A DNA stretch of 64,000 nucleotides from a virus. Of the stretch, positions 38,755 to 58,062 are shown in pieces. The position numbers were made by a program, and so were the translations under genes. Location: IMG/VR virus record IMGVR_UViG_3300016667_000188, positions 9,026-73,025 of that record; one strand, written 5' to 3'. The notes below the pieces were generated by a model. That model did no database searches. It was given only the letters and a program-made list of their open reading frames with translations, and was not told where the DNA came from. Numbering within the stretch: position 1 is the stretch's first letter; the number at the start of each line of letters is the position of its first letter.

Positions 38755-40473
38755 TTGATTGTTTTTAAAAGCGTAAGTTGGAAAAACTTTCTTTCTACAG
38801 GTAACTCGCCTAATACAGTATTACTAAACAAGTCTCCTACCACTCTTATCATCGGTAAGAATGGTGAAGGTAAAAGCACAATCTTAGATGCATTGTGCTT
38901 TTCGTTGTTTGGTAAACCATTTCGTAACATCAACAAGGGGCAGTTGGTAAACTCTATCAACGGCAAGGGTTGTGTTGTTACTATCGAGTTTTCTATTGGT
39001 CCACGTAACTATAAAATTGTTCGTGGAATCAAACCCAACATTTTTGAGATCTATCTAAACGATGAACTTATCAATCAAGATGCTGCATCTCGTGACTACC
39101 AAAAGATTCTAGAACAGCAGATTCTTAAGCTAAACTATAAGACATTTACTCAGGTGGTTATCTTGGGTTCTGCATCGTTCGTTCCATTTATGCAGTTACC
39201 ATCTGGTCAGCGTCGTGATGTTATTGAAGACATCCTTGACATTCGCATTTTCTCTACGATGAACCAGATTCTAAAAGAAAAGGCTCAGGAGACTAAAGAT
39301 GCCATTCAAAAGATTGAAAATGAGATTGCTGCTGCTAAGACTAAAGTCGAAGCACAAACTACAATTATTAAAACTATCTCGGAAGCGAAAGCAGATAGTA
39401 TTCGATCCATCCAAACGAAAATCTCTAACAGCACTGAAGAAATTGGGCGAACTCAGTCGGAAATTGATGTCATCATCGGAGAGATCACAACTCTTAAAAA
39501 TAAGATTAAAGACAAAGACAAGATCAAAGAAGATCTTACCAAAGCAGGACAACTGCAGCAGCGACTTCTACAAAAAGTCGAAACTTGCGAGCATCACATG
39601 GGATTCTTTGGAGAGCATGATGTTTGTCCAAGCTGCAATCAAGACATCTCAGAAGAATACAAAGAGAGTATTCTCAAAGACCTTAATGAAAAACTGTCAG
39701 AACAAAACGGTAAGGTTGATGAACTCAACCAAGTCCTTACCAAACTTCAAGAAAAACTTTCTGCAGTTAATGAAATTGTACAGCAGATCGCCGACAAGAA
39801 CATCGAACTCTCTACCAAGAATTCATCTATAACTCTATTGAATAGACAAATCTCTGAGGCAGAACTCGAGATCGAACGACTTAAAGCTGACACAACTAAT
39901 GTTGATGAAGAAAAAGCTAAGCTGAAACAACTGGCTCAAGATGCTGTTGCAAAGATCAACCAGAAGACCACTCTTCAAGAGCAACGAAACCTTGAGGAAG
40001 TCGCCAACATTCTCTTGAAAGATACTGGTATCAAGACAGCCATCATCCGTGAATACTTGCCGATTATGAACAAGCTGATCAACAAGTATCTGAATGCTAT
40101 GGATGCTTACATTCACTTCGAGTTGGATGAGTCGTTCAATGAAATCGTTAAGTCTCGCCACCGTGATGAGTTTACTTATGCAAGTTTCTCTGAAGGTGAG
40201 AAGATGCGTATCGACTTGGCTATTCTTTTCACATGGCGTCAGATCGCTAAGATGAAGAACAGTGTCAACACCAACCTTCTGTTGCTTGATGAGATCTTTG
40301 ACTCAAGTTTAGATACAGCTGGTACTGACTACTTCTTGAACTTGATGAACTCTTTTGGTGAAAATTCAAACATCTTTGTTATCTCCCACAAAGGCGATCA
40401 GCTGTTCGACAAGTTTCGTAGTGTTATTAAGTTTGAAAAACGCAACGACTTCTCTGTAATAGCTACAAACTAA
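38755..40473 (+). CDS. 46: recombination endonuclease subunit gp46 (Rad50/SbcC-like ATPase)
   Basis: LIIGKNGEGKSTILDA..FGKPFRNINKGQL, central coiled coil with a CPSC zinc hook, and C-terminal YASFSEGEKMRIDLAILFTW...LLLDEIFD all align to T4 gp46. Apparent TTG start. Confidence 0.85.
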   Translation: MIVFKSVSWKNFLSTGNSPNTVLLNKSPTTLIIGKNGEGKSTILDALCFSLFGKPFRNINKGQLVNSINGKGCVVTIEFSIGPRNYKIVRGIKPNIFEIYLNDELINQDAASRDYQKILEQQILKLNYKTFTQVVILGSASFVPFMQLPSGQRRDVIEDILDIRIFSTMNQILKEKAQETKDAIQKIENEIAAAKTKVEAQTTIIKTISEAKADSIRSIQTKISNSTEEIGRTQSEIDVIIGEITTLKNKIKDKDKIKEDLTKAGQLQQRLLQKVETCEHHMGFFGEHDVCPSCNQDISEEYKESILKDLNEKLSEQNGKVDELNQVLTKLQEKLSAVNEIVQQIADKNIELSTKNSSITLLNRQISEAELEIERLKADTTNVDEEKAKLKQLAQDAVAKINQKTTLQEQRNLEEVANILLKDTGIKTAIIREYLPIMNKLINKYLNAMDAYIHFELDESFNEIVKSRHRDEFTYASFSEGEKMRIDLAILFTWRQIAKMKNSVNTNLLLLDEIFDSSLDTAGTDYFLNLMNSFGENSNIFVISHKGDQLFDKFRSVIKFEKRNDFSVIATN

Positions 40474-40484
40474 AGTATTACTTT

Positions 40485-40505
40485 TACCCTACTGCAAGTA
40501 GGGTA
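40485..40505 (+). terminator. PeSL-like stem-loop TACCCTACT-gca-AGTAGGGTA abutting the -35 box
   Basis: 9-bp perfect stem preceded by cttt. Part of the AAAGTATTAC-leader cassette. Confidence 0.6.
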
Positions 40506-40533
40506 TTGACTTTTCGACAGATTGATGTATAAT
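40506..40533 (+). promoter_or_regulatory. early promoter TTGACT-N16-TATAAT
   Basis: ttgacttttcgacagattgatgtataat. Confidence 0.7.
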
Positions 40534-40559
40534 AAAGTCCTGTCGGAAAGGAGTTTGAA

Positions 40560-40763
40560 ATGGCTGAGATCAAAATGGGTACGGTCTACCGAGTAGACAT
40601 TATCGAATCTGAGCGTGGTTGGGGTCAGAAAATCGAAGATCAAAAGTTCTTCGATAACTATGATGAAGCTGCAAAGTATATCGAAAGATACAATGCAGAT
40701 CTTCCAGCTGGTCCTGCTCCCGACTGGTATATGATGGCTCGTGGTCCTTACAGAGTGAGTTGA
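40560..40763 (+). CDS. hypothetical protein
   Basis: 67-aa ORF with GGAG RBS. First gene of the early unit. Confidence 0.45.
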   Translation: MAEIKMGTVYRVDIIESERGWGQKIEDQKFFDNYDEAAKYIERYNADLPAGPAPDWYMMARGPYRVS

Positions 40764-40764
40764 T

Positions 40765-41070
40765 ATGAAAAAACTTTTTGTTATGATGTTGGTTATTGCA
40801 ATGTCTTCTGCTGTCTATGCTAAAGGTGGTGGCGGCGGTGGCGGTGGTCATGGAGGCGGTGGCGGACACGCTAGTTCTTCTGGTCACTCCAGTTCTTCTA
40901 GCCATGCTAGTTCTTCTGGTGGTGGTAAGGGCACATCGAGTGGTAAGAGTGCATCTGTTGCACCTGAGCCTAGTCGTTCCAATACTTCAAGTAGTTGGTT
41001 CCCTTGGTTTGGTGGAGGTGGATCTAAAGGATCTTCTGAAGAAAAGTGTAAGAAAGAAAAAACCTGTTAA
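40765..41070 (+). CDS. secreted Gly/Ser/His-rich small protein (signal peptide MKKLFVMMLVIAMSSAVYA)
   Basis: N-terminal signal peptide followed by G8HG5H...SSS low-complexity sequence and a C-terminal CKKEKTC. Confidence 0.5.
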   Translation: MKKLFVMMLVIAMSSAVYAKGGGGGGGGHGGGGGHASSSGHSSSSSHASSSGGGKGTSSGKSASVAPEPSRSNTSSSWFPWFGGGGSKGSSEEKCKKEKTC

Positions 41071-41130
41071 GGTTTTCCTATATAAAAAACAGGACAGGTA
41101 GTCTGTCCTACTGATTCTAAGGAGTTTAGA

Positions 41131-42105
41131 ATGAAAACTGGTATCTTCATTGGGCGTTTCCAGCCCGTACATCACGGTCACATCCATGCACTCGGAGTGG
41201 CTGCATCCCAAGTAAATAAACTTTACATCCTCGTAGGCTCGGCTAACGCATGCCGAAGTATTAAGAATCCTTGGACTTTTGATGAGCGTAAGCAGATGCT
41301 GGCTCTCAAACTGCATGCCGAGAGAATCACAAACTACGAAATTATTCCACTCAACGACTATCGTTACAGCGATACGCAATGGATGTCTGACGTCCGTGCC
41401 ACTATCGAACACTACAACATGGGCTCACCGATTCTGTTCGGTCACATCAAAGAAGGTAATGATTACCTGAAGTGGTTCCCTGAATTAAAATTTAAGAGCA
41501 TTGAGGCTCAATATAATATCGATGCAACTCACATTCGTGAGGAGATGTTTAAGAATGACGACCCTCTGATGCCAGAAACTGTCCGAGGCGACTATGCTTT
41601 CTACCAAAAAGAAAAACAACTCTTCAAAGATTATCCATTCCCCGAAACTCTCAACTTCAATTGCTCTGATGCGATCCTCGAATGCCAAGGACATGTGCTT
41701 CTCATCCAACGCAAGTTCAGTCCAGGTCGAGGTGCTTGGGCACTTCCAGGAGGTTTTCGCAACCAGCGTGAAACATTTCTTGACTGTGCCATCCGAGAGT
41801 TGATTGAAGAAACTAACGTGCGAGTCCCTGAGAAAGTTCTCCGTGGCTCTATCGTGAAAACCGAATTGTTCGACAGTCCTCGTCGTTCGTTCGGTATTCC
41901 CCGAAACACCATGGCTGTGTACATGCGTATTAGTCCGAATCCTGACTACTCGCTGCCTCGTGCTAATGGTGCTGACGATGCTGCTCTGTGCAAGTGGGTG
42001 CCACTTACTGACGCACTGAACAACATCGAGATGTATGATGACCACAAGGACATCATTTCTAAAGTAACAGGTGTTATGTCAATGCCTGCATTTGCAAAAC
42101 TGTAA
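41131..42105 (+). CDS. natV: bifunctional NMN adenylyltransferase / Nudix hydrolase (NadM-Nudix, KVP40 NatV-like)
   Basis: N-terminal GRFQPVHHGH nucleotidyltransferase motif. C-terminal Nudix box GGFRNQRETFLDCAIRELIEETNV. Confidence 0.8.
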   Translation: MKTGIFIGRFQPVHHGHIHALGVAASQVNKLYILVGSANACRSIKNPWTFDERKQMLALKLHAERITNYEIIPLNDYRYSDTQWMSDVRATIEHYNMGSPILFGHIKEGNDYLKWFPELKFKSIEAQYNIDATHIREEMFKNDDPLMPETVRGDYAFYQKEKQLFKDYPFPETLNFNCSDAILECQGHVLLIQRKFSPGRGAWALPGGFRNQRETFLDCAIRELIEETNVRVPEKVLRGSIVKTELFDSPRRSFGIPRNTMAVYMRISPNPDYSLPRANGADDAALCKWVPLTDALNNIEMYDDHKDIISKVTGVMSMPAFAKL

Positions 42106-42121
42106 ACGATTAGGATCGTGT

Positions 42122-42415
42122 ATGAACGAACGAATTCAAGAACTTGCTCGTCAGTCTGGTGCATATCATAAAGATGACGACGGTGAAGAAACTAAGATTG
42201 CTGTTCTAATAGGTAAGGAAGTAGAAAAGTTCGCCGAGTTGATTGTTCGGGAATGTATGGAACTTAATAGAAAACAATCCTGGGATCTTACTGGTGTGAT
42301 TATTGATGTTGAAGAAAGCACTGGTTTTGACGAAGTGTGTATGAATACTGTAAAACGAGTAAAGAATTATCTAGCAGGCGATGACTTGCTAAAACATTTT
42401 GGAGTTGAAGAATGA
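42122..42415 (+). CDS. small protein, MNERIxELA/EKFAELIVREC family member A
   Basis: Paralogous to 43003, 43203, 43540 and 43999. Ends in HFGVEE. Confidence 0.5.
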   Translation: MNERIQELARQSGAYHKDDDGEETKIAVLIGKEVEKFAELIVRECMELNRKQSWDLTGVIIDVEESTGFDEVCMNTVKRVKNYLAGDDLLKHFGVEE

Positions 42416-42609
42416 TTTTGAAGTATTTTAGAGAACAAATTGAAGGTGGTGCTACAGATAACTTTTTCTATGGCACTGAAATGAATGGTGAAGTTCGCAT
42501 TGAGCGTCATCGTGGTAGTCTTGACTCATTCCCCACTGATCTAAAATTTACGAGAATGGTAGGAAGTGTTCCGTTCTTTACTCAAGAACATTTCGGAGTT
42601 GAAGAATGA
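42412..42609 (+). CDS. small protein ending in EHFGVEE
   Basis: 65 aa. The body is unrelated to the family, but it shares the junction cassette. Confidence 0.4.
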   Translation: MILKYFREQIEGGATDNFFYGTEMNGEVRIERHRGSLDSFPTDLKFTRMVGSVPFFTQEHFGVEE

Positions 42610-42833
42610 ACGCTAAAAGAGGTCTACCCCTGGAAAGCATTGCGACAGACCCTGTAAGAATGCGAGCGAGATGTGAAGCATTGGTAATTGCTATGGTAGG
42701 CAAAGATATGGCTGAGAAATGGTGGAATGGCCCAAACAAGGCATTTTGTGATGACACACCAGAACAGATTTATAGTGTAGCACCCAGTGCGGTGTATGCT
42801 TATCTAATGCGATCAGCCGAAGGAGAATGGTAA
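42606..42833 (+). CDS. DUF2384-like (ParS/MbcA/Xre-type RES-toxin antitoxin C-terminal domain) orphan protein
   Basis: AEKWWNGPNKAFCDDTPEQIYSVAPSAVYAYLMRSAEGEW fits the A..WL..PN.AL.G.TP......G...V...L.R...G signature. Recognised from memory, with no search run. Confidence 0.45.
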   Translation: MNAKRGLPLESIATDPVRMRARCEALVIAMVGKDMAEKWWNGPNKAFCDDTPEQIYSVAPSAVYAYLMRSAEGEW

Positions 42834-43006
42834 TGAACCAACGTAAAGTTCACTACATTGATGTGAGCAAAATGTCCGAAAAAGAACTATGTGAAACATT
42901 GAACATTCCATATGTTCCGTGGTATTGTGATAGTATCTTTTGGGCATTGGCACTGGTTTTTACTGCGCCCAGTATCCTGATTATTACTTTGGAGATATTC
43001 AAATGA
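42833..43006 (+). CDS. small protein with hydrophobic C-terminus (57 aa)
   Basis: TAATG overlap upstream and ATGA overlap downstream. Confidence 0.35.
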   Translation: MNQRKVHYIDVSKMSEKELCETLNIPYVPWYCDSIFWALALVFTAPSILIITLEIFK

Positions 43007-43206
43007 ACAAACGAATTAAAGAACTGCAGTTTCAAGCTGCCGCACAAGTTAATCCGTTGTTGGAAGGTTCTGAGTGGCAACAAGTGTTTGTTGAGAATTT
43101 TGCCGAGTTGATTATCAAAGAAACACTACAGGTTGCTCGTGCTGGTATAGAGTTCGGCGACGGTATGGAAGATGCTGTTTACAAATATTTCGGAGTTGAA
43201 GAATGA
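43003..43206 (+). CDS. MNKRIKEL/FAELIIKE family member B (67 aa)
   Basis: Family motifs. Ends in YFGVEE. Confidence 0.45.
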   Translation: MNKRIKELQFQAAAQVNPLLEGSEWQQVFVENFAELIIKETLQVARAGIEFGDGMEDAVYKYFGVEE

Positions 43207-43448
43207 ACGAACGAATTAGAGAACTTGCTAGAGAGGCTGGGTTGCCTACATACAACCCCGAAGGTATTCCAACTAAATTAGAAAAGTTCGCCGAGTTGAT
43301 TGTTAGGGAATGTATTCGCATTGGCCAAGAAACCAGCAAAGATATTTTCAAAATGTCAAAGAAAGAAGGTGACATTTTTGAATATGAATCACACGGTGCA
43401 GAACAAGTAGTTGATAATATCAAAGAGCATTTTGGAGTTGAAAAATGA
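43203..43448 (+). CDS. MNERIRELA family member C (81 aa)
   Basis: MNERIRELAREAG..EKFAELIVRECI..EHFGVEK. Confidence 0.5.
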   Translation: MNERIRELAREAGLPTYNPEGIPTKLEKFAELIVRECIRIGQETSKDIFKMSKKEGDIFEYESHGAEQVVDNIKEHFGVEK

Positions 43449-43543
43449 GCATAAGCGAAACTATCGTCATACTTGCTATGATTTCACTGTTTGCCTTGGT
43501 TGCAGTGGGTGTATATAAGTTGATTGTAAAAGGTTTTCTATGA
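43445..43543 (+). CDS. 32-aa single-TM peptide (MSISETIVILAMISLFALVAVGVYKLIVKGFL)
   Basis: ATGA overlaps at both ends. Entirely hydrophobic. Confidence 0.35.
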   Translation: MSISETIVILAMISLFALVAVGVYKLIVKGFL

Positions 43544-43767
43544 ACGAACGAATTAAAGAACTTGCCCAACAGGCTGGATGCAGTATTGATGGAATGGGCT
43601 ATGGCGAAGGTAATGTAGAAAAGTTCGCCGAGTTGATTATTCGGGAATGTATTGGTTGTTGTGAACAAGTTATCAGTGATCCTGTTCCTGAATCCGTGGA
43701 TAGTTGGTTAAATGGTGGCGAACAATGTATCCAAGAGATTAAACAGCATTTTGGAGTTGAAAAATGA
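43540..43767 (+). CDS. MNERIKELA family member D (75 aa)
   Basis: MNERIKELAQQAG..EKFAELIIRECI..QHFGVEK. Confidence 0.5.
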   Translation: MNERIKELAQQAGCSIDGMGYGEGNVEKFAELIIRECIGCCEQVISDPVPESVDSWLNGGEQCIQEIKQHFGVEK

Positions 43768-44015
43768 AAGTTTCCAATCTACGCAAAATCACAGACCCAA
43801 CTACATTTGAACCAAGTGTAGTAGTAGATGTAGAAATCCCAAGAATGACCTTATACGAACTAACTCTAATGAAAGAGGACATTCGTAAAGACATTATCTA
43901 CACACTCGGAGCGGAGTTATTGGGACAGATTGTTGTTCAGATGGGTATGACTGATGAACAAAAGAAAGACCTAATCAAGGACTTGCTGGGAGTGAACAAT
44001 GACACCGAATCCTAA
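43764..44015 (+). CDS. hypothetical protein (83 aa)
   Basis: ORF coupled by ATGA. Confidence 0.4.
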   Translation: MKVSNLRKITDPTTFEPSVVVDVEIPRMTLYELTLMKEDIRKDIIYTLGAELLGQIVVQMGMTDEQKKDLIKDLLGVNNDTES

Positions 44016-44223
44016 AATCCGAGAACTCATTATGAGTATGGGCATTATTCCTGAAAGCGAACACTATGATATCGCTGAACGAGTTATTGAAGAATGTATG
44101 GCAATGTGTAAAACCGCTGTAGGCAACGCTGACTACAACACTGGCAGACTACATTGTTTAGAAAACATCAAAGAACACTTTGGAGTTAAACGATGGCACT
44201 TCGACAACTGCAAAGGTGCTTGA
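43999..44223 (+). CDS. family member E (IRELI..ERVIEECM..EHFGVKRWHFDNCKGA) with read-through of a degenerate junction
   Basis: The junction is mutated to GGAGTTAAACGATGG, so the usual stop is lost. Confidence 0.45.
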   Translation: MTPNPKIRELIMSMGIIPESEHYDIAERVIEECMAMCKTAVGNADYNTGRLHCLENIKEHFGVKRWHFDNCKGA

Positions 44224-44248
44224 CTTTTATTCAATAGTCAGGTATAAT
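44220..44248 (+). promoter_or_regulatory. early promoter TTGACT-N17-TATAAT upstream of the NAMPT gene
   Basis: ttgacttttattcaatagtcaggtataat. Confidence 0.65.
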
Positions 44249-44292
44249 TAACTTACTCCGAGACGGTCTTGGGGAATTTTTAGGAGCTAAAA

Positions 44293-45687
44293 ATGAGCAT
44301 TTCAAAATCAATCATTCTAAACACCGACAGCTATAAAGTTAGCATGTTCAAACAGTATCCTGCAGGTACGACTGGTGTTTATTCCTATATTGAATCACGT
44401 GGTGGACGCTATGATCGCACTGTGATGTTCGGTCTCCAAGCCTTCATTAAGGAGTATCTACTTGATCCAATTACCCAAGCCGACATTGATATTGCTGATG
44501 AGATACTCACTACTCACGGAGAACCCTTCAACCGAGAAGGATGGGAATATATCCTACGTGTCCACGATGGTTATCTCCCAGTCGTTATTCGTGCAGTTCC
44601 TGAGGGTACAGTGGTTCCTGTTAAAAATGTTTTGGCTACAATTGAAAACACGGATCCTGAATGCTATTGGTTGACTACTTATCTGGAAACTGCTCTTCTG
44701 CGTGCAGTCTGGTATCCAACCACTGTGGCTACTCAAAGCTACACCATTCGCAAAGTGATCATCGAATATCTGGAGAAAACTGGTGACCCTAGCCTTATTG
44801 ATTTCAAACTGCACGACTTCGGTGCTCGTGGCGTTTCTTCTATGGAAAGCGCAGGAATTGGCGGTGCTGCCCACTTGGTTAACTTCATGGGTACTGATAC
44901 CATCACTGGTCTTCTGTATGCTCGTGAGTATTACAATGCTGGTATTGCTGCTTTCTCTATCCCTGCCGCAGAACACAGTACCATCACCAGCTGGGGTCGT
45001 GACAACGAAGTAAAAGCCTATGACAACATGCTTACTCAGTTTGCTAAGCCTGGTAGTATCGTTGCAGTGGTCAGCGATAGCTATGATATCTTCAACGCTG
45101 CATCTAAACTCTGGGGTGAAGAACTCAAGCAGAAAGTTATTGATAGTGGCGCTACTATTGTCATCCGTCCAGACTCTGGCGATCCTGATACTGTTTGCCG
45201 TAAACTTGTAGAAATTCTCGGTCAAAAGTTCGGTTACACTACTAACGACAAAGGATACAAGGTTCTGAACAACGTCCGCATTATCCAAGGTGACGGTGTG
45301 AATGAACAAACTATCCGCACTATCCTTGGTGGCTTTGCTGCTTACGGTTGGTCTGCTGACAACATTGCTTTCGGTATGGGTGGTGCTCTACTGCAACAAG
45401 TCGATCGTGACACTCAGAAGTTCGCAATGAAGTGTTCTGCTGCTCTGATCAACGGTGAGTGGGTGGATGTGCAAAAAGATCCTGTCACTGACGCTGGTAA
45501 GAAGTCTAAAGCAGGTCGTGTGCAACTTTGGGAAAGTGGTGGTGAGTTTATCTCTTCTGTCACTCGTCCTAATACTTGGACTGATCGTGGCTTTGCATGG
45601 GCTCCAGCGTTGCAAGAAGTGTTCCGTGACGGTAAACTTGTAACCGAGTACACCTTCGAGCAAGTCCGAGCCAACGCCAAAAAGTAA
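44293..45687 (+). CDS. nadV: nicotinamide phosphoribosyltransferase (NAMPT, KVP40 NadV-like)
   Basis: 464 aa with a NAMPT-like length and composition (e.g. GTDTITGL, FGMGGALLQ segments). Paired with the NMNAT-Nudix gene. Confidence 0.75.
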   Translation: MSISKSIILNTDSYKVSMFKQYPAGTTGVYSYIESRGGRYDRTVMFGLQAFIKEYLLDPITQADIDIADEILTTHGEPFNREGWEYILRVHDGYLPVVIRAVPEGTVVPVKNVLATIENTDPECYWLTTYLETALLRAVWYPTTVATQSYTIRKVIIEYLEKTGDPSLIDFKLHDFGARGVSSMESAGIGGAAHLVNFMGTDTITGLLYAREYYNAGIAAFSIPAAEHSTITSWGRDNEVKAYDNMLTQFAKPGSIVAVVSDSYDIFNAASKLWGEELKQKVIDSGATIVIRPDSGDPDTVCRKLVEILGQKFGYTTNDKGYKVLNNVRIIQGDGVNEQTIRTILGGFAAYGWSADNIAFGMGGALLQQVDRDTQKFAMKCSAALINGEWVDVQKDPVTDAGKKSKAGRVQLWESGGEFISSVTRPNTWTDRGFAWAPALQEVFRDGKLVTEYTFEQVRANAKK

Positions 45688-45707
45688 TACCTTAGGCTTA
45701 CAAAAAG

Positions 45708-45733
45708 AAACCCCACCGAGTGTGGGGTTTTTC
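45708..45733 (+). terminator. rho-independent terminator AAACCCCAC-cgagt-GTGGGGTTT plus U-run
   Basis: Seen directly. Preceded by the AAAAGTAATACCTTAGG leader. Confidence 0.8.
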
Positions 45734-45743
45734 AACTTAGGGG

Positions 45744-45772
45744 TTGTCTTTTTACAAAACCTGATGTATAAT
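45744..45772 (+). promoter_or_regulatory. early promoter TTGTCT-N17-TATAAT (TGATGTATAATA core)
   Basis: Seen directly. Confidence 0.6.
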
Positions 45773-45795: not shown

Positions 45796-45963
45796 ATGTG
45801 GAGTGATTTTAGTGACTACGAACTAGCCGAACTGGCTGGTCGCTATGGGTTGGAAGACAACCTAGTTTTTGATTATGAACTCAGTCTTGCAAATCGTGAC
45901 GAGATTGAGAAACTGTTGACTGAATTTGAATGGGAGATTGCAAATGCAGAACGTAGCATCTGA
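45796..45963 (+). CDS. small acidic ORF (55 aa)
   Basis: GGAG RBS. Overlaps the VWA gene start by 20 nt. Confidence 0.3.
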   Translation: MWSDFSDYELAELAGRYGLEDNLVFDYELSLANRDEIEKLLTEFEWEIANAERSI

Positions 45964-48133: not shown

Positions 48134-48177
48134 AACGAAAGTGTTACATTCTGTAAGTTGTTGATTTTACAGGGAAA

Positions 48178-48206
48178 ATAACCCTACTTTTTGTGGGGTT
48201 ATTTCC
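48178..48206 (+). terminator. stem-loop/terminator ATAACCCTAC-ttttt-GTGGGGTTAT
   Basis: 10-bp stem with one G-U pair. Confidence 0.6.
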
Positions 48207-48215
48207 AAAAAGTAG

Positions 48216-48243
48216 TTGACTTTTTTGCAGACTGATGTATAAT
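48216..48243 (+). promoter_or_regulatory. early promoter TTGACT-N16-TATAAT with TTTTTTGCAGACTGATG spacer
   Basis: Seen directly. Confidence 0.7.
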
Positions 48244-48265
48244 ATGTGTATGTTCTTGATTATGA

Positions 48266-49438: not shown

Positions 49439-49452
49439 AAAGTAATACCTAA

Positions 49453-49481
49453 GTAATCCCCTCAAGTTTGTAGGGGATTAC
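49453..49481 (+). promoter_or_regulatory. PeSL-like 10-bp perfect hairpin GTAATCCCCT-caagtttgt-AGGGGATTAC with no U-run
   Basis: Seen directly. Preceded by the AAAAGTAATACCTAAG leader. Confidence 0.55.
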
Positions 49482-49490
49482 AAAAAGGTG

Positions 49491-49519
49491 TTGACTTTTG
49501 GTGCAAGTTGGTGTATAAT
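49491..49519 (+). promoter_or_regulatory. early promoter TTGACT-N17-TATAAT
   Basis: ttgacttttggtgcaagttggtgtataat. Confidence 0.7.
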
Positions 49520-49558
49520 AATCTCTGTTATCGTTGAAAACCCGAAAGGAAATTTACT

Positions 49559-50041
49559 ATGTTGAAGTTTGCTGATCTGTCGCTTTCTCAAAAGCGTTTT
49601 GTTGTTGCCCTGTTGGAAGCCCAACCCCACTTTAAGAAGGATCCTCAGATTACCCTGAAGGAATGCGCTGCATTCTATTACGAGATGCGTGATCAACGCA
49701 CTGGTGCTAAGGGTGAGAAGATCGGTTATCCGAACTGGCTGTTCAACAAGAACAAGGTTGAGCGTGGCGTGTACCAAGTACCTGTTCCCACTGCAACCGA
49801 ACTGTCTGCATTCACCAAGGAAGTTGCTGCTAAGTCTGCACCCAAAGCTACTGCAAAAGCAGCTAAGGTTGCTAAAGCCAAAGTGGTTAAGGTGAAGACT
49901 GCAAAGACCACTCCTACTCCTACTGTAGAGAAAACTCTGGAAGGTACTCGCCTCCAGAAAGTTATCGATGAATCCATCTCTATGGAAGATGAAGTCGAAG
50001 ACTTCAATCAGATCCTGCGTGAGAATGGCATCGAAGTCTAA
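49559..50041 (+). CDS. hypothetical protein with Lys/Ala-rich histone-H1-like segment
   Basis: AKSAPKATAKAAKVAKAKVVKVKTAKTTPTPT. Confidence 0.45.
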   Translation: MLKFADLSLSQKRFVVALLEAQPHFKKDPQITLKECAAFYYEMRDQRTGAKGEKIGYPNWLFNKNKVERGVYQVPVPTATELSAFTKEVAAKSAPKATAKAAKVAKAKVVKVKTAKTTPTPTVEKTLEGTRLQKVIDESISMEDEVEDFNQILRENGIEV

Positions 50042-50113
50042 TTAAGTTATTTCCTGTAAGCTGATGAGGGTTGCCATCCCCTCATCGGCTCTTTTTCGTT
50101 TGATGGTTTTATA

Positions 50114-50389
50114 ATGGAGAAATTTATGTCTCGACAAGCAAAGTTGCTTTCATACCTACAGACTGGTGCTGCAGTTACTGCTCGCCAGATCCACGGTTCT
50201 TTTGGTTTGAAGAATCCCCACGATGCTATTCATCAATTGCGTAGCAAGGGTCATTGTATCTACTCTAACCGTTCTAAACTTGCTGATGGTACTACCACTA
50301 TCAAGTACAAGATTGGTGCACCTAGCAAGCGTATGGTCCAAATCGCTAATGCGGTTCTTGGCGCCGATGCGTTTATGGCTCGTCGTTAA
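50114..50389 (+). CDS. small putative winged-helix DNA-binding protein
   Basis: 91 aa. HTH-like segment VTARQIHGSFGLKNPHDAIHQLRSKG. Weak evidence. Confidence 0.35.
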   Translation: MEKFMSRQAKLLSYLQTGAAVTARQIHGSFGLKNPHDAIHQLRSKGHCIYSNRSKLADGTTTIKYKIGAPSKRMVQIANAVLGADAFMARR

Positions 50390-50441
50390 ACAGCCAGTGG
50401 GCATTCTCTGAGTGCCTATTACCAGTTTAATGGAGAGAAAG

Positions 50442-50774
50442 ATGGCAACATTAGAAGAAGTTAAAGCATCCCAAAAAGCCACCACTGGTGGTCGAAAGTT
50501 TGATGGTGGTAAGCTGCAATATGGTTTGCTCCCACCCCTAGCATTGGCAGAGACCGTAAAGGTTCTGACCTTTGGCGCAGAGAAATATGAACCAGACAAT
50601 TGGAAACAAGTGCCCGATTCCAAGCGTCGTTATTTCGATGCACTACAACGACACCTGTGGGCATACAAAGCAGGTGAAGAATTGGATCCCGAATCTGGTA
50701 TCCACCATCTGGCGCATGCAATGTGCTGCCTGATGTTTCTTTATGAGCATGATGTGAAGTATTCAAAGGAATAA
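50442..50774 (+). CDS. MazZ-like (dATP/dGTP diphosphohydrolase N-terminal-domain-like) protein
   Basis: FDGGKLQYGLLPPLALAETVKVLTFGAEKYEPDNWKQV resembles that family's N-terminus. Recalled from memory, with no search run. Confidence 0.35.
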   Translation: MATLEEVKASQKATTGGRKFDGGKLQYGLLPPLALAETVKVLTFGAEKYEPDNWKQVPDSKRRYFDALQRHLWAYKAGEELDPESGIHHLAHAMCCLMFLYEHDVKYSKE

Positions 50775-50775
50775 G

Positions 50776-51156
50776 ATGTTTTTCTCAAAACAAAAAACCG
50801 AAGATGGTATCGTCGGCAACTACGCTGATGCACTAAAGCGCATCAAAGAACTTGAAGCTGAGGTCGAGCGACTGCAATATGCAAACAAGGCATATCAGAC
50901 TCGCCTCGTGGATGAGTATTCTAAGGCTAGTTACTCTGTTGATTTTGCCAAGATGAATGCGTTCTCGATTGAACGCCACTGGGATAATGGTACACAGAAA
51001 ACTATTATCGGATATATCCTTCAAGAGCCATTCTCAACTACTGAAGGAGAATACTCGACCAAAGATGTAGTTCGTGAATGGAATCTACTTTGCTCTCACG
51101 AAGAACATGAGCGACTGGTAAAACAATTTAATGATTATGTGAAAGGTGGTAAGTAA
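50776..51156 (+). CDS. hypothetical protein
   Basis: 126 aa. Confidence 0.4.
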   Translation: MFFSKQKTEDGIVGNYADALKRIKELEAEVERLQYANKAYQTRLVDEYSKASYSVDFAKMNAFSIERHWDNGTQKTIIGYILQEPFSTTEGEYSTKDVVREWNLLCSHEEHERLVKQFNDYVKGGK

Positions 51157-52028
51157 TGTTTATTTTTGGCGTAACTCTTATCTTGGCACTCCTTGCCGCA
51201 GGTGCTGCATTCTTTGTTAGCGAAAGTGTTCGTGGAGAAACTGTGCATCCTTTCCGCAGGTTCACTGTGCTCCCTCTTATTATCCCCGCTGTAGTTCTGG
51301 CATTTGAATGCTTCACGATTGTCCCTGCTGGTCACGTTGGCGTTCAAGTCACTATGGGTACTGTCAACCCAGTTGCTCTGCAAGCTGGTGTTAATTTTGT
51401 CAACCCAATTTCTAGCGTTCGTGATGTTGAGGTTCGTGTCAAACGAGCAGACCTGAAGGAAGCGCAAGCTGGTACTAAAGACCTACAATCGGTTCACACT
51501 GATATCGTTATCCAGTATCGTATGAGTCCCGATAAGGTTCCTACCATCTATAAAGAATTCGGTCTGAACGTAGATGACAAGATTCTTGGTCCAGGTGTTA
51601 ACGAGGCATTCAAAGCAGTGACTGCCCACTACAACTCTGAAGAACTGATCACCAAGCGTGACCAAGTTAGCACAGAGATTCTTAACCACGTTCGTGCTAA
51701 AGTTGCACCGTTCGATATCGAGATCCAAGGTATCAGTCTAGTGAACTTTGGTTTCTCTGCAGAATACCAGAAAGCTATCGAGCAGAAGGTCATCGCTACT
51801 CAACAAAAGCAGAAAGCCGAACAAGATCTGGAGCGTATCAAAGTTGAAGCACAACAGGCTATCGCTACTGCTGAAGGTCGTGCCAAAGCAATCCAGATTG
51901 AAACTCAGGCTATCAATAGTCAAGGTGGTGCAGCTTATGTCCAACTTGAAGCCATCAAGAAGTGGGATGGTAAACTGCCCCAATTCAACGGTAGCAATGC
52001 CGTACCTTTCATTAACGTAGGAAAATAA
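51156..52028 (+). CDS. SPFH/band-7 (prohibitin-like) membrane protein
   Basis: N-terminal TM helix followed by an SPFH domain (VPAGHVGVQV..., QKAEQDLERIKVEAQQAIATAEGRAKA). Confidence 0.75.
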   Translation: MFIFGVTLILALLAAGAAFFVSESVRGETVHPFRRFTVLPLIIPAVVLAFECFTIVPAGHVGVQVTMGTVNPVALQAGVNFVNPISSVRDVEVRVKRADLKEAQAGTKDLQSVHTDIVIQYRMSPDKVPTIYKEFGLNVDDKILGPGVNEAFKAVTAHYNSEELITKRDQVSTEILNHVRAKVAPFDIEIQGISLVNFGFSAEYQKAIEQKVIATQQKQKAEQDLERIKVEAQQAIATAEGRAKAIQIETQAINSQGGAAYVQLEAIKKWDGKLPQFNGSNAVPFINVGK

Positions 52029-52029
52029 T

Positions 52030-52278
52030 ATGACTCTATCATCTGACGCAGATAAAAAGAAACTCCACGCTGCAATCGTGGAAATTAGTAACTCAATGAC
52101 TCGTGTAGAAGCTGAGCGAGACTTGATCAAAGACATCGTCAAAACTGCTTCTGATAACTTTCAAATTCCGAAGAAGACTATCAGTAAGATCGCTAAGACT
52201 TATCACAAGCAGAATTTCTCTCAAGCTGTAGCTGAGAATGAAGAATTTGAAGAGTTGTACGAGAAGATTACAAAATAA
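52030..52278 (+). CDS. hypothetical protein
   Basis: 82 aa. Confidence 0.4.
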   Translation: MTLSSDADKKKLHAAIVEISNSMTRVEAERDLIKDIVKTASDNFQIPKKTISKIAKTYHKQNFSQAVAENEEFEELYEKITK

Positions 52279-52280: not shown

Positions 52281-52309
52281 TTGTTAAAAGTACCTTTTCA
52301 CGGTATAAT
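52281..52309 (+). promoter_or_regulatory. promoter TTGTTA-N17-TATAAT upstream of gene 45
   Basis: Seen directly. Confidence 0.5.
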
Positions 52310-52348: not shown

Positions 52349-53005
52349 ATGAAACTTAGTAAAGAAACAGTCGGTCTTTTTAAGAACTTTGCTGGCATCA
52401 ACAGCAACCTTCTTTTGAAGAGCGGCAACAAGCTGGCTACAATCAGCGCACAGAAAAACGTGATGGCTGACGCCACTGTTACCGAGTCATTCCCTGACTT
52501 TGGAATTTATGATCTGAATGAGTTCTTAGGCGCAATGTCCTTGTTCGATGACCCCGAGCTAGAATTCAGCGACAAGTATGTGACAATTAAACAAGGTAAC
52601 AGTTCTATTAAATACTTTGCTGCTGATGCAACTGTCTTGACTGCCCCTCAAAAGAGCATCACATTCCCCAACGCAGAAATTGAGTTTACCTTGAGTGCTG
52701 CTATGTTGAATATGATTCATCGCACTGCATCCGTCTTGCGTGCAACTGACTTGCAGATCGTTGGTGATGGTAGCACAATCACTGCAGTGGTCGGTGACAA
52801 GAAGAATGCTACTGGTAACTCTTTCAGTGAACCTGTTGGCGCAACTGACAAATCGTTCAAAGTTAACTTGAAAGTAGAAAACTTGAAGATGCTTCCAGGT
52901 GATTATACTGTTAGCATTTCTAGCAAGAAGATCTCTCGTTTCAAGGGTGCTGGTGATCTAGTTTATTATGTAGCAGTCGAAGCAGATTCCACCTTTGACT
53001 TTTGA
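52349..53005 (+). CDS. 45: sliding clamp gp45
   Basis: MKLSKETVGLFKNFAGINSNLLLKSG...IYDLNEFLGAMSL...YYVAVEADSTFDF aligns to T4 gp45 end to end. Confidence 0.9.
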   Translation: MKLSKETVGLFKNFAGINSNLLLKSGNKLATISAQKNVMADATVTESFPDFGIYDLNEFLGAMSLFDDPELEFSDKYVTIKQGNSSIKYFAADATVLTAPQKSITFPNAEIEFTLSAAMLNMIHRTASVLRATDLQIVGDGSTITAVVGDKKNATGNSFSEPVGATDKSFKVNLKVENLKMLPGDYTVSISSKKISRFKGAGDLVYYVAVEADSTFDF

Positions 53006-53052
53006 TTTTAGAGGGAGTATAATAACTCCCTCTCTTTTGTTATGAGTTTGTT

Positions 53053-53388
53053 ATGAAAACAAGTATACGAGATAGAAAAACTCCACATGCAGTGACTGCA
53101 AATTTGTACGGTGGTAAATCTACTGATATGGTATGGGCTTGGTGTTTCAAAGATGGCGATGAAGACGGTAAAACTGTTAAGAAACATATCCCTATGACCA
53201 ATGTGTATGTCAACGAGAATACCCAAGACATACCAGATGACAAATTTCGCAAAGCAGATCTTAGAAAATTCCACGTTGATGTATGGAATCAGAAGGCTAA
53301 GAATCTTGAGAAGCATGGTAAGTTTATGACTAATTATGAGTTAAAAGACTATTTTAGTCGTGCAGATCTTGATAAATTTATGGAGTGA
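53053..53388 (+). CDS. hypothetical protein
   Basis: 111 aa. Confidence 0.4.
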   Translation: MKTSIRDRKTPHAVTANLYGGKSTDMVWAWCFKDGDEDGKTVKKHIPMTNVYVNENTQDIPDDKFRKADLRKFHVDVWNQKAKNLEKHGKFMTNYELKDYFSRADLDKFME

Positions 53389-54341: not shown

Positions 54342-54348
54342 GGGATTT

Positions 54349-55834: not shown

Positions 55835-55995
55835 ATAGATTATCCCTCGGGATGGGAACGTAAAGACTCTACTACCTTAGGAGCGTCTTAAGGCTGGCAC
55901 TACGATAAGGTGTCCCTGTACTACAGTAAGCAGGATTGACTACGCCAAATGGGTAGTCTAATTTTATTTTTAACTCGCTTAATAGGAGAAACAAT

Positions 55996-56478
55996 ATGAA
56001 GCAATTCATTCCTGCATTCTTTTCTCAAGATGCATTCAAAGACATCGATAAACTTTTCTTGGGTTTCGATGATCAATTCAAGCGTATGCAAGAACTGCAC
56101 GACGACTTGACTAAAAACATTCCAAACTACCCTCCGTTTAATGTTCGTAAGAACGGTAACACTTACACAATCGAGATTGCTGTTGCTGGTTTCGCACAAA
56201 ACGAAATCGACATCACTATCGATGGCGGTAAGCTAATCGTTAAGGGTAACTCTGAATCTGTAGAATCAGAAGATAACTTCCTGTTCAAAGGTATTGCTAA
56301 TCGTGCGTTTACTCGTGCTTGGGCTATCGGCGACTCATATGAAGTTAAAGATGCAGAGTTGTTTAACGGTATCCTTAAGATCGCACTTGACAAGCTAGTT
56401 CCAGAAGAGCAAAAGGCTAAGAAGGTTCCAGTCAAAGCAGGTAAAGGAAAGCAGTACCTAACTGAGGAAGATCTATGA
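55996..56478 (+). CDS. hsp20: small heat-shock protein (Hsp20/alpha-crystallin)
   Basis: Alpha-crystallin domain FNVRKNGNTYTIEIAVAGF..EIDITIDGGKLIVKG. Confidence 0.75.
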   Translation: MKQFIPAFFSQDAFKDIDKLFLGFDDQFKRMQELHDDLTKNIPNYPPFNVRKNGNTYTIEIAVAGFAQNEIDITIDGGKLIVKGNSESVESEDNFLFKGIANRAFTRAWAIGDSYEVKDAELFNGILKIALDKLVPEEQKAKKVPVKAGKGKQYLTEEDL

Positions 56479-56815
56479 TTAAATCCTTTAAGGGATTTGT
56501 CATGGCACTACTTGAAGGATTAGTTGAAGCAAGAAAAGCAAGAGCAGAATCTATCACTAGGGGGATCGGAAGATGACCTTTCTAGACTCGATAAAAAGAT
56601 TCTTTTCACTACCAAGTGAACAATCTCTTCTTGACGAATTTATTACTAGCAAGAATCCAAAGAGTGAGTCAGATGTAGAACACTGGACTCGATATTTTTA
56701 CGATAACAGAGCGAGGTTCCTATGACTCAGTGGATTCCAATGACTGACGACGACTGGGATTGGGTGAATGGAAAGGTTCCTCCAAACCCAAACGATAAAA
56801 CAAAGTGAGAACTAT

Positions 56816-57265
56816 ATGTCTTTAACACTACAAAACCTTGAGAGTGCATTGGCTGGTGAGTCAATGGCACACATTAAATATCGCTATTTCGCTAAGATTG
56901 CACGTGAAGAAGGTTTCGAAGAAGTTGCTCAGCATTTTGAGCACACAGCTGACCAAGAAATCAAACACGCATGGGGACACCTAGAATTGTTGATCGGTAA
57001 ACCTTCTACAAAGGAATGCCTTGAGAAAGCAATCGCTGGTGAGACTTATGAGTATACAGAAATGTATCCTAAGTTTGAGAACATGGCTAAAGCTGAACAC
57101 AACATCGAAGCTGTTAAAGAATTTAATGAACAGGGTCGTGAATCAAACGAACACGCTCAGCAATTTAAGGCAGTGCTAGAAAAGGCACAAAAGCGTTTTG
57201 CTGCACTGAAGAAAGTTGAAGAGCGCCATGCGCATGCCTATAAAAAAGTATTAGGAGATCTATGA
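56816..57265 (+). CDS. rubrerythrin-like ferritin-fold protein
   Basis: Paired E...ExxH di-iron motifs (AGESMAHIKYRYFA; EHTADQEIKHAWGH; AGETYEYTEMYP). The ORF is open from 56768. Confidence 0.65.
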   Translation: MSLTLQNLESALAGESMAHIKYRYFAKIAREEGFEEVAQHFEHTADQEIKHAWGHLELLIGKPSTKECLEKAIAGETYEYTEMYPKFENMAKAEHNIEAVKEFNEQGRESNEHAQQFKAVLEKAQKRFAALKKVEERHAHAYKKVLGDL

Positions 57266-57393
57266 TGGAACATGTATGTGTAGTTTGTGGTCACATTCAC
57301 GATGAGGAAACTGAGGGTAAGTGGGAAGATCTTCCAGCTGACTTTCTTTGCCCAGAGTGTGGTGTAGGTAAAGACGAATACGAAACTATTTGA
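57265..57393 (+). CDS. rubredoxin (42 aa)
   Basis: CVVCGH ... CPECG. ATGA overlap with the rubrerythrin gene. Below the ORF-track size cutoff. Confidence 0.65.
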   Translation: MEHVCVVCGHIHDEETEGKWEDLPADFLCPECGVGKDEYETI

Positions 57394-57405
57394 TCGTCAT
57401 ACAAT

Positions 57406-57429
57406 TTTAGGGGTCTTCGGATCCCTAAA
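57406..57429 (+). terminator. stem-loop terminator with UUCG tetraloop (TTTAGGGGTC-ttcg-GATCCCTAAA)
   Basis: 10-bp stem with one G-U pair. Same core as the MCP terminator. Confidence 0.6.
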
Positions 57430-57437
57430 TAATTTGT

Positions 57438-57641
57438 ATGATGAGAGCAAAACTTTCCCCTAACTTAATTTCATTCGTGTTAGTGCGAAGAGGGGATTGG
57501 CTTCTCAAAGTTTCTGTTTACAAAAACAAAACGATTTTAGTGTGCGCCCAACACATCATTGATCTTGACCTAGTAGTTGTCAGGTTCTTTGAAGACCAAA
57601 ATGTTGCTGCTGACTTTATCGAAAAATTAGTTGAGGAATAG
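57438..57641 (+). CDS. hypothetical protein
   Basis: 67 aa. Confidence 0.3.
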   Translation: MMRAKLSPNLISFVLVRRGDWLLKVSVYKNKTILVCAQHIIDLDLVVVRFFEDQNVAADFIEKLVEE

Positions 57642-57933
57642 TATGATTAAAGTGTTTAAATTGATCAATGGTGAAGAAGTCATCAGTGAAGTTACATCTG
57701 GTTCTGATGGTGGTTACTATCTAGAATCTCCCGCATCAATTCAGTTGCAACAAACAGCGCAAGGTGTTGGTGTTGGAATCGCTCCATATATGCCATACGC
57801 CAAAGACAAGGTTTATCTTTTCAAGCATGCGATCGCAAGCGAAGCAAACCCAGATGAAAAGATGGAAAACGAATACCGCAGGATTTTCGGCTCAGGTATT
57901 CAAGTAGTCTCTGCTGGCTCTATCAAACTGTAA
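57631..57933 (+). CDS. hypothetical protein
   Basis: 100 aa. Confidence 0.4.
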   Translation: MRNSMIKVFKLINGEEVISEVTSGSDGGYYLESPASIQLQQTAQGVGVGIAPYMPYAKDKVYLFKHAIASEANPDEKMENEYRRIFGSGIQVVSAGSIKL

Positions 57934-57952
57934 TCCTAAAGTATTACTTTTT

Positions 57953-57978
57953 AACCCTCCACTTGGAGGGTTTTTTGC
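57953..57978 (+). terminator. rho-independent terminator AACCCTCC-actt-GGAGGGTT plus U6
   Basis: Seen directly. Preceded by the TAAAGTATTACTTTTT leader. Confidence 0.8.
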
Positions 57979-58034
57979 TTGTAGAATCAACAACTTACAA
58001 TCCCCCAACCCTGTAGGGTTACTCCAGATACCTG

Positions 58035-58062
58035 TTGACTTTTTTGCAGATTAGGGTATAAT
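58035..58062 (+). promoter_or_regulatory. early promoter TTGACT-N16-TATAAT with TTTTTTGCAGA spacer
   Basis: Seen directly. Confidence 0.7.

Follow-up and report, generated by a model that had tools for sequence, protein, structure and literature searches.

A probable family of PeSL-type regulatory cassettes at early gene junctions of an uncultured T4-like phage

Promoter-early stem-loop (PeSL) cassettes were described in the coliphages phi1 and RB49 (Arbiol et al. 2010, PMC2839356). PeSLs are so far known from three branches of T4-type phages infecting enterobacteria and vibrios; in the cyanophage S-PM2 their density is low and a role for them was judged unlikely (PMC4503421). Here we describe a family of intergenic elements in a 64,000-nt stretch of viral DNA (positions 9,026 to 73,025 of IMG/VR record IMGVR_UViG_3300016667_000188; hereafter the window), each of them joining a palindromic leader, a hairpin and a sigma70-type promoter. 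These cassettes are, with a probability of about 0.7, PeSL-type composite regulatory elements of an uncultured T4-like (Kyanoviridae-like) phage.

The window is part of a myovirus genome of about 170 kb, and all statements below on genome-wide distribution cover the 64 kb. Nearly all genes are on the + strand, and their order is that of the Kyanoviridae phage Melnitz. Recognised products are the gp21 prohead protease, gp22 scaffold and gp23 major capsid protein, UvsY, UvsW, the late sigma factor gp55, gp47, gp46, the gp45 sliding clamp, the gp44/gp62 clamp loader, RegA, Hsp20, a DNA ligase and an exonuclease. When 10 kb of the window was compared by megablast with 50,697 phage records, no match was found; the best identity to cyano-, pelagi- and methylophages is 64% for the major capsid protein and 50% for gp46, and the clade is one without a close cultured relative. 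Hundreds of relatives are, on the other hand, present in IMG/VR and metagenomes. Loci from these sources are numbered L001 to L245, with 162 loci in the first set. The close relatives are L004/L002/L084 and L038/L001 (two 170-kb contigs, IMGVR_UViG_3300016476_000468 and IMGVR_UViG_3300047392_000113, with 82-90% DNA identity and about 50 kb of each compared), plus L003, L083 and L005. A literature search for the motif strings found no relevant paper.

Layout and distribution of the cassettes

A single layout is repeated at five intergenic regions (40471, 45680, 48134, 49438 and 57937; cassettes 1 to 5), always on the gene strand. The upstream stop codon is followed by a leader named M1, a GC-rich hairpin, the -35 and -10 boxes of a promoter, a GGAG-type Shine-Dalgarno (SD) sequence and the ATG of the next gene. 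M1 is a 13-bp near-palindrome, AAAGTA-W-TACTTT (AAAGTAWTACTTT), located so that the stop codon lies 0-5 nt 5' of it or within it. The hairpin between leader and promoter is stable in all five cassettes (-11.4 to -15.5 kcal/mol) and sits 0-62 nt upstream of the -35 box, while the SD precedes the ATG by 5-9 nt (5/5). Two of the cassettes also contain a second module, M2 (TAAGTTGTTGAT; TAAGTTGTTGATTTTACAGGG), at 48152 on the + strand and at 57980 on the - strand, and a third module, TTTCATTTAG-N-TG, often joins the hairpin to the -35 box. The features are as follows.

Cassette 1, 40472..40484, + strand: M1 leader AAAGTATTACTTT, overlapping the gp46 stop codon (40471-40473); identical in L004, L038 and L003
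Cassette 1, 40485..40505, + strand: hairpin TACCCTAC-tgcaa-GTAGGGTA, -11.4 kcal/mol; the U-rich tail consists of the -35 box and a T-run (TTGACTTTT)
Cassette 1, 40506..40533, + strand: promoter TTGACT-N16-TATAAT, then SD at 40549 and ATG at 40560 (first island gene)
Cassette 2, 45681..45693, + strand: M1 leader AAAGTAATACCTT, with the stop codon of NAMPT (TAA) inside it; the palindrome is complete in relatives (AAAGTAATACTTT)
Cassette 2, 45708..45730, + strand: hairpin AAACCCCAC-cgagt-GTGGGGTTT, -12.8 kcal/mol, with a U-tail and an A-tract upstream
Cassette 2, 45744..45772, + strand: promoter TTGTCT-N17-TATAAT, then ATG at 45796
Cassette 3, 48138..48150, + strand: M1 variant AAAGTGTTACATT, two mismatches
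Cassette 3, 48152..48171, + strand: M2 module TGTAAGTTGTTGATTTTACA, whose reverse complement contains AATCAACAACTTA
Cassette 3, 48177..48203, + strand: hairpin, -14.2 kcal/mol
Cassette 3, 48216..48243, + strand: promoter TTGACTTTTTTGCAGACTGATGTATAAT, then ATG at 48278 of a CobS-like AAA_5 gene
Cassette 4, 49439..49451, + strand: M1 leader AAAGTAATACCTA, directly 3' of the stop codon at 49436-49438
Cassette 4, 49453..49481, + strand: hairpin, -15.5 kcal/mol, with an A-rich tail
Cassette 4, 49491..49519, + strand: promoter TTGACT-N17-TATAAT, then ATG at 49559
Cassette 5, 57938..57950, + strand: M1 leader AAAGTATTACTTT, kept at this junction in L083, L084, L094, L095 and L105
Cassette 5, 57953..57972, + strand: hairpin AACCCTCC-actt-GGAGGGTT followed by TTTT, -12.9 kcal/mol
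Cassette 5, 57980..57999, - strand: inverted M2 (TGTAAGTTGTTGATTCTACA on the - strand); this middle part of the cassette is missing in L083 and L105
Cassette 5, 58035..58062, + strand: promoter TTGACTTTTTTGCAGATTAGGGTATAAT, then ATG at 58094
Upstream of uvsY, 32256..32284, + strand: promoter TTGATTTTTTTGCAACTCTACTGTATAAT, without leader or hairpin
Upstream of NAMPT, 44220..44248, + strand: promoter TTGACT-N17-TATAAT, predicted to drive NAMPT, with a stem-loop 3' of the -10 box at 44256-44274 (-8.2 kcal/mol)
Upstream of gp45, 52281..52309, + strand: promoter TTGTTA-N17-TATAAT
Left boundary of the variable gene 53053-53388, 52995..53033, + strand: promoter TTGACT-N17-TATAAT, with the -10 box in the loop of a hairpin at 53010-53033 (-14.5 kcal/mol)
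Accessory island between cassettes 1 and 2, 40560..45687, + strand: about 5.2 kb, annotated with Pfam

The occurrence of these parts is not random. The window contains six exact matches to TTGACT-N16-18-TATAAT, at 40506, 44220, 48216, 49491, 52995 and 58035, all of them on the + strand, compared to 0.03 expected; the promoters at 45744, 32256 and 52281 match 10/12 positions of the boxes. AAAGTAWTAC occurs seven times against 0.6 expected, and when up to two mismatches to M1 are allowed, five of the six sites in the 64 kb are the five cassettes. Four further promoters of the family (32256, 44220, 52281 and 52995) lack M1. The structural half of the window (1-31.6 kb) contains no cassette; all are within 32-58 kb, from uvsY to the ligase region. 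The interval from gp46 to gp45 contains cassettes 1-4 together with the 44220 and 52281 promoters; cassette 5 belongs to a second variable stretch, located from Hsp20 to the ligase. Paralogous copies share the 13-bp leader and the 42-nt promoter block at 62-79% identity, and their hairpins differ.

An earlier sequence-only reading of the window had proposed that five early units are bounded by one composite element. The strings it quoted are present at their coordinates, the M1-hairpin-promoter layout is found at all five sites, far above chance, and the related promoters it named at 32256, 44220 and 52281 were located. Some details need correction: the -35 box at 45744 is TTGTCT rather than TTGACT, and the string at 49438 does not end in AGG but reads ...CCTAAGT. 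The spacer TTTTTTGCAGAYTGATG, said to recur in the promoters, is exact at 48216 only and 62-79% similar over 42 nt elsewhere. Its leader set omits the two-mismatch leader at 48138 (the 48134 cassette), and its promoter list lacks 52995, with its -10 box inside a hairpin, and a perfect match at 38190 in gp47.

The latter, TTGACA-N17-TATAAT at 38190-38218 on the gene strand within the gp47 coding sequence, is kept in six relatives, the most distant having about 73% DNA identity, and may either serve gp46 as an internal promoter or simply reflect codon constraint. Upstream of gp55 (35460-36080), a TTGTCT-N17-TATACT sequence at 35420-35448 is conserved in relatives and has neither leader nor hairpin.

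Gene content and breakpoints around the cassettes

Comparison of the window proteins with the first 162 loci separates widely shared from poorly shared genes. gp46 is present in 104 loci and the genes of 45944-50774 in 70-93; any one of the 13 island genes, from cassette 1 to cassette 2, is found in just 2-5 of the 162. Other poorly shared blocks are 50776-52278, 53053-53388, 56573-57393 and 58094-58961, and every such block has a cassette, promoter or hairpin at one end. Genes adjoining cassettes 1, 2 and 5 and the promoters at 52281 and 52995 are present in 1-9/162 loci.

The island between cassettes 1 and 2 consists of two small open reading frames (ORFs), an NMNAT-Nudix gene (41131-42105), a tandem family of small ORFs (42122-44223) and NAMPT (44293-45687). 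Downstream of gp46, 55 loci have a single cassette, followed by a homologue of the gene at 45796 or 45944, and 4 loci have the island. In L022 the single cassette is chimeric, the left 30 nt being closer to window cassette 1 than to cassette 2 (score 15 versus 10) and the right 62 nt fitting cassette 2 far better than cassette 1 (36 versus 14). The promoter and 5' untranslated region of cassette 2 are orthologous to those of the single post-gp46 cassette of L022, L017 and L021. We regard this pattern, two cassettes with the island and one without it, as the strongest evidence for a PeSL-type nature of the elements.

The same cargo is found elsewhere in other genomes. In 80 metagenome contigs containing NAMPT (L166-L245), the NMNAT-NAMPT pair almost never adjoins gp46; in L174, L227, L234 and L231 it follows homologues of 56768-57393 or 57438-57641, a position that corresponds to the second plastic region, where window cassette 5 resides. 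Downstream of NAMPT, most contigs have a promoter with the -35 box inside or beside a GGGG...CCCC hairpin, and L182, L191 and L203 have the M1-hairpin-promoter form instead. The module of NAMPT and NMNAT-Nudix, an auxiliary metabolic module for NAD salvage that is bracketed by two cassettes here, missing from most relatives and located in another plastic region in others, is a concrete example for the proposed shuffling of gene blocks.

NAMPT is widespread among environmental contigs of related phages, where it usually occurs with NMNAT-Nudix and in many different gene contexts, and a conserved gene starting MTYFLK commonly follows the hairpin-embedded promoter. KVP40-type phages also carry NAD-salvage genes. 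The small paralogous ORFs of 42122-44223 (about 57-97 aa) have common starts (ATGAACGAACGAATTAAAGAACTTGC) and an internal block, and their ends, CATTTYGGAGTTGAAGAATGA, carry the SD of the next gene; the array is wholly missing in L038 and L003, and further members are found close to NAMPT in other contigs. The 60-nt spacer that precedes the NMNAT-Nudix gene contains a hairpin at 41086-41108 (ACAGGACAG...CTGTCCT) with an A-run upstream, which makes it terminator-like on the - strand only; at this site L003 lacks the preceding ORF and has a promoter and a different hairpin instead.

Close relatives differ from the window at cassettes and promoters repeatedly. L005 lacks 40452-45768, so that the gp46 stop codon is followed by a single cassette and then the homologue of 45796. 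In L038 and L003 the segment 42105-44280/44320 is missing, its right end being the 44220 promoter. A 3.2-kb segment with two genes replaces 45701-45959 in L003 and has a cassette on each side, the left one composed of M1, M2, a hairpin and a TTGTCTTTTTTGCAGATTGGTGTATAAT promoter. Extra DNA of 2.0-2.4 kb is present in L084 and L083 precisely at the 52281 promoter, and the gene 53053-53388, directly after the 52995 cassette, is replaced in L084 and deleted in L083. Both of these relatives also have a replacement of 56471-57393, ending at the hairpin at 57406. Finally, L083 lacks 58105-58480, and its cassette 5 directly precedes, and would drive, the homologue of 58494; the crossover lies in the SD/ATG region, as has been reported for PeSL mini-circles (PMC2839356).

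Modules are also exchanged between cassettes at non-orthologous junctions. Cassettes of about 90-100 bp can be aligned across genomes at such junctions, namely window cassette 2, cassette 5 of L083 and L105, and the cassettes of L182, L191 and L203. A 23-bp piece bearing M1 in cassette 3 is present in the window, L004 and L038 and missing in L003 and L083. An M2 copy is inserted in cassette 2 of L038, both M1 and M2 are found at the cassette 4 junction of L105 and L154, and cassette 1 of L003 has no hairpin. A single different hairpin takes the place of the cassette 5 centre (hairpin, inverted M2 and second hairpin) in L083 and L105, with M1 and the promoter kept.

The cassettes may act in two ways. 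The hairpin would end one early transcription unit, as a terminator or attenuator, and the near-consensus promoter for host sigma70 RNA polymerase, with the SD, would start the next, so each gene block would be transcriptionally self-contained. The shared short modules (M1, M2, the TTTCATTTAG-type spacer and a promoter block of 28-42 nt) would supply homology for recombination. As T4-type recombination acts on short homologies, with a requirement below 50 bp (PMC2839356, PMC4122927), cassettes could provide joints for inserting, deleting or moving gene blocks while genes and regulation are left intact. Early promoter activity at the cassettes, and with it the regulatory role, is judged probable from the consensus boxes and their conservation, and the recombination role from the comparative patterns.

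The sequence-only reading had proposed to test whether cassette positions coincide with indel breakpoints between relatives, and they largely do: in 10/12 distinct indel events one end or both lie in a regulatory intergenic region, versus 42% expected for random gene junctions (p ~0.004). Several observations weigh against a PeSL-type nature of the cassettes. The breakpoint statistic is weak because such regions make up most of the non-coding DNA, where gene-preserving indels tend to end. The coincidence fails for cassettes 3 and 4 and for two clean indels without a cassette, the GIY-YIG segment (32740-33412) and the SPFH segment (51158-52030). Cassettes 3 and 4 (48134 and 49438) flank genes whose order is kept in 66 relatives, and their junctions carry a promoter in nearly all relatives (for cassette 4, in nearly all of 46 distinct orthologous sequences), so ordinary inherited regulation suffices for those two, and a cassette evidently need not be a breakpoint. 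PeSL copies in phi1 and RB49 are conserved over about 100 bp, whereas the window copies share short modules only, with 62-79% identity over 42 nt and identical stretches of about 16 nt. In cassette 4, moreover, the hairpin has no U-tail (its tail is AAAAAGG).

The conserved junctions of cassettes 3 and 4, the low paralogous identity and the cassette-free indels, some of which would have arisen through microhomology at SD/stop/start overlaps, all fit an alternative in which the cassettes are plain, vertically inherited boundaries of transcription units. Their likeness would stem from a shared early-promoter consensus and the need for a GC hairpin, and indels would end in whatever non-coding DNA is available; the same extended consensus, cTTGaCtTTtATT...gGTATAAT, is present at orthologous junctions of nearly all relatives. 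Such boundaries do not account well for the single cassette of relatives being a chimera of window cassettes 1 and 2, for the cassettes at both flanks of the L003 insertion, for M1 and M2 that come, go and switch between non-orthologous cassettes in close genomes, or for a cargo module located in different plastic regions of different genomes. We consider plain inheritance possible but rather unlikely as an explanation for the family as a whole, and retain the PeSL-type interpretation. Counts of kept versus broken synteny per junction in the 162 distant loci were also tried and did not separate cassette junctions from others. They are uninformative because lineage-specific small genes break almost every junction, and close relatives were used instead.

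As to the genes of the two cassette-free segments, the GIY-YIG homing-endonuclease-like ORF (32719-33399) lies between uvsY and uvsW. The segment 32740-33412 is missing from every relative examined (L004, L038, L003 and L005), and the protein has no homologue in the first 162 loci. The SPFH/Band-7 gene (51156-52028) is precisely missing in L002/L084 and L083, with the joint in a stop/SD/start overlap.

Leader modules, hairpins and neighbouring elements

M1 is kept directly 3' of the stop codon at orthologous junctions of relatives in which hairpins and promoters have diverged: after gp46 (L026 and L027), after 48278-49438 (L047, L105 and L154) and after 57643-57933 (the five relatives listed for cassette 5). 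Its core, GTAWTAC, is nearly invariant and changes in the arms are not compensatory, which suggests a sequence-specific site in double-stranded DNA and not an RNA hairpin. As a self-folding hairpin M1 would form only a weak 5-bp A/U stem, with uncompensated variation, and this candidate was rejected. So was an avoided restriction site, GTAWTAC not being depleted (19 sites versus 7.9 expected). Our best guess is that M1 is a putative site for a dimeric phage or host protein.

Both window copies of M2 read AATCAACAACTTA and fit the consensus for integration host factor (IHF), WATCAANNNNTTR, which makes M2 a putative IHF site; such a match does not by itself show binding. In the compared loci the M2 pattern TAAGTNNTTGAT occurs at 82-89 distinct sites, in both orientations, compared to about 4 expected. 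The positions conserved among the roughly 80 sites are those of the IHF consensus, with variation at its N positions. A sigma70-like promoter is found within 170 nt on the gene strand for 79% of the sites versus 17% of controls, and a strong adjacent hairpin for 41% versus 14%. A RegA operator or an RNA hairpin was considered and rejected for M2, which works in both orientations and is often upstream of the promoter, so that a role at the DNA level fits better. M2 is best guessed to be a putative site for IHF or a similar bending protein that modulates the adjacent promoter. The cultured relative Melnitz has neither M1 nor M2. The conservation of M1 at orthologous junctions of distant relatives, and an IHF-consensus module at about 80 sites, are new. 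The two modules are possible handles on the proteins, if any, that act on cassettes, a question left open by the original PeSL authors.

Could M1, M2 and the hairpins instead be mosaic intergenic repeats of the REP/BIME kind, bound by proteins and spreading and rearranging by themselves, with the promoters as separate neighbours? The abundance of M2, the constant orientation of its GGG/AAAATAA side towards the hairpin, its occasional tandem or inverted pairs and its agreement with the IHF consensus, YAANNNNTTGATW, would all fit, as would the near-palindromic M1 without compensating changes and the presence or absence of both modules between close relatives. The 79% versus 17% promoter association, by contrast, ties M2 to promoters instead of setting it apart from them; neither target-site duplications nor terminal repeats were seen, the link with IHF is no stronger than its consensus match, and Melnitz carries neither motif. 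We hold autonomous repeats to be quite improbable. A related proposal, that M1 and M2 are putative protein-binding modules which, with the variable hairpins, make up an undescribed mosaic REP/BIME-like intergenic family that would regulate early units and also offer favoured joints for recombination in a large uncultured T4-like clade, is put forward tentatively and is unlikely as it stands. Under that proposal the candidate for binding M1 is a dimeric phage protein, for instance the conserved 87-aa winged-helix product of 50126-50389, and that for M2 host IHF.

The cassette stems keep their pairing through compensating substitutions among close relatives; the stem of cassette 4, CCCCT/AGGGG, becomes CCCTT/AGGGG, with a G-U wobble, and the hairpin after gp23, GGGGATC/GATCCCC, becomes GGGTCTC/GAGACCC. 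Cassettes 2 and 5 have a GC stem with a direct U-tract, the look of a canonical intrinsic terminator. In cassettes 3 and 1 the U-tract is partial: the tail is UCC after the ...GGGGUUAUU arm in cassette 3, and UUGACUUUU, overlapping the -35 box, in cassette 1. The hairpin of cassette 4 does not look like a canonical intrinsic terminator on its own. Since the quality of the U-tail varies by cassette, termination at the cassette hairpins is plausible but not uniform.

Cassette 4 is also where a role of the leader in RNA would be most readily accommodated. M1 would then pair with the transcribed -35 region and enlarge the hairpin to a terminator or antiterminator, with the TTTT after TTGAC as the U-tract, or the leader would be an RNase E-type processing site upstream of a protective hairpin. 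The minimum-energy fold of cassette 4 pairs AAGUAAUACCU with AGGUGUUGACUU around the hairpin (z = -5.5), the inner hairpin has no U-tail of its own, and matched changes are present in three lineages (ACCU:AGGU, ACUU:AAGU and ACUUU:AAAGU). However, folding predicts no such pairing in cassettes 1, 3 and 5 and a weak one in cassette 2, and the pairing is unsupported in L154, L047 and L105, which have M1 at the same junction. Variation in M1 is, as noted, not compensatory, and the palindromic core points to recognition of double-stranded DNA. A leader acting in RNA is very improbable.

An unusual hairpin at 50059-50090, outside the cassette family, is located upstream of the 87-aa winged-helix gene (50126-50389), the product of which matches Pfam HTH_39 (22.8 bits; cut-off 21.3). 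RNAalifold on a MAFFT alignment gave no structure here, the stems being misaligned, and a loop-anchored analysis was used. Across 40 relatives the sequence of the stem (10-13 bp) is almost wholly different and its pairing is kept; 26 different hairpins are represented, and each position has between two and six pair types. At its 3' end the loop always reads CCATC (50074-50078), and a complementary GATGG (50102-50106) lies 7-12 nt 3' of the stem, just before the TATGGAG SD. The CCATC-loop hairpin motif has a single copy in the window; in all compared sequences, such hairpins have a downstream GATGG in 47/53 cases on the + strand versus 0/7 on the - strand. No Rfam match was obtained for this leader, which may be a pseudoknot or an autoregulatory operator of the gene for the DNA-binding protein.

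Two similar UUCG-loop hairpins are found at 31686-31725 and 57406-57432 (GGATCTTCGGATCCC and GGGTCTTCGGATCCC), compared to 0.01 expected, each followed or overlapped by CTAAATAA. This 8-mer occurs seven times in the window, always on the + strand and often just upstream of genes, with one copy at 32767, beside the GIY-YIG ORF region. The pair of UUCG-loop hairpin and CTAAATAA could be a late-promoter counterpart of the early cassettes. M1 and M2 were themselves considered as late promoters and rejected, the candidate late motif CTAAATAA being different and sitting elsewhere. The 161-nt intergenic region 55835-55995, from the RegA-side genes to Hsp20, contains no consensus promoter; the region is kept in L084 and L105, is longer in L083, and ends in a GACTAC...GTAGTC hairpin with a T-run. 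Its fold z-score is -0.6 and it has no Rfam match. For the whole window, Rfam covariance models gave no match at gathering score, and a tRNA search found nothing.

Comparison with known systems

In RIP/RIB-type REP/BIME elements, REP palindromes flank an IHF site at the 3' ends of operons. The cassettes resemble these in being mosaics of GC-rich palindromes and an IHF-consensus box, located after stop codons, in either orientation and with variable modules. They differ in belonging to a lytic phage, in their tight link to promoters and in having no sequence similarity to REP. Integron gene cassettes, an analogy made by Arbiol et al. (PMC2839356), are likewise promoter-associated, self-contained gene modules swapped at short conserved joints. 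Here there is no integrase and no attC-type site, and exchange would need general homologous recombination.

The PeSL and PmSL cassettes of the Vibrio phages nt-1/KVP40 and of PST/T4 (Comeau et al. 2014, PMC4122927) also exist as lineage-specific versions, each with its own stem-loop and promoter consensus, include degraded 'half' cassettes and cluster near indels and replacements. The promoters in the window are closer to canonical (TTGACT/TATAAT), no versions with a Mot box (middle promoter) were seen, and the leader palindrome is new.

The PeSLs of phi1 and RB49 are the closest match. The sequence-only reading had likened the elements to mobile regulatory cassettes of T4-type phages, and this is supported, every structural feature of a PeSL being present. 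The order of stop codon, stem-loop, near-consensus sigma70 promoter, SD and ATG is the same, many copies are confined to plastic early regions, and they flank accessory genes, with one chimeric cassette where the insert is missing (compare ORF192 in RB49 versus phi1). Crossovers near the -10 box, SD and ATG are another shared feature. The three stem-loop positions of the window (5' of the -35 box; over the -10 box, at 52995; and 3' of the -10 box, at 44256) are among the five described subclasses, and the commonest form, with the -35 box inside or beside a GGGG...CCCC hairpin, is the one seen downstream of NAMPT. The differences are that the hairpin is here mostly upstream of the -35 box and not between or over the boxes, that the M1 palindrome and the IHF-like M2 box are not part of the PeSL description, and that the phi1 and RB49 cassettes are backed by promoter and terminator assays and mini-circles, while those described here are known from sequence alone. 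The hundreds of metagenomic relatives open the shuffling model to tests by natural variation, and a search for the cassette pattern is a practical means of marking early transcription units and probable insertion hot spots when uncultured T4-like genomes are annotated. The lineage also differs, being a Kyanoviridae-like uncultured clade; the comparison would extend a known design to an abundant group of phages related to cyano-, pelagi- and methylophages.

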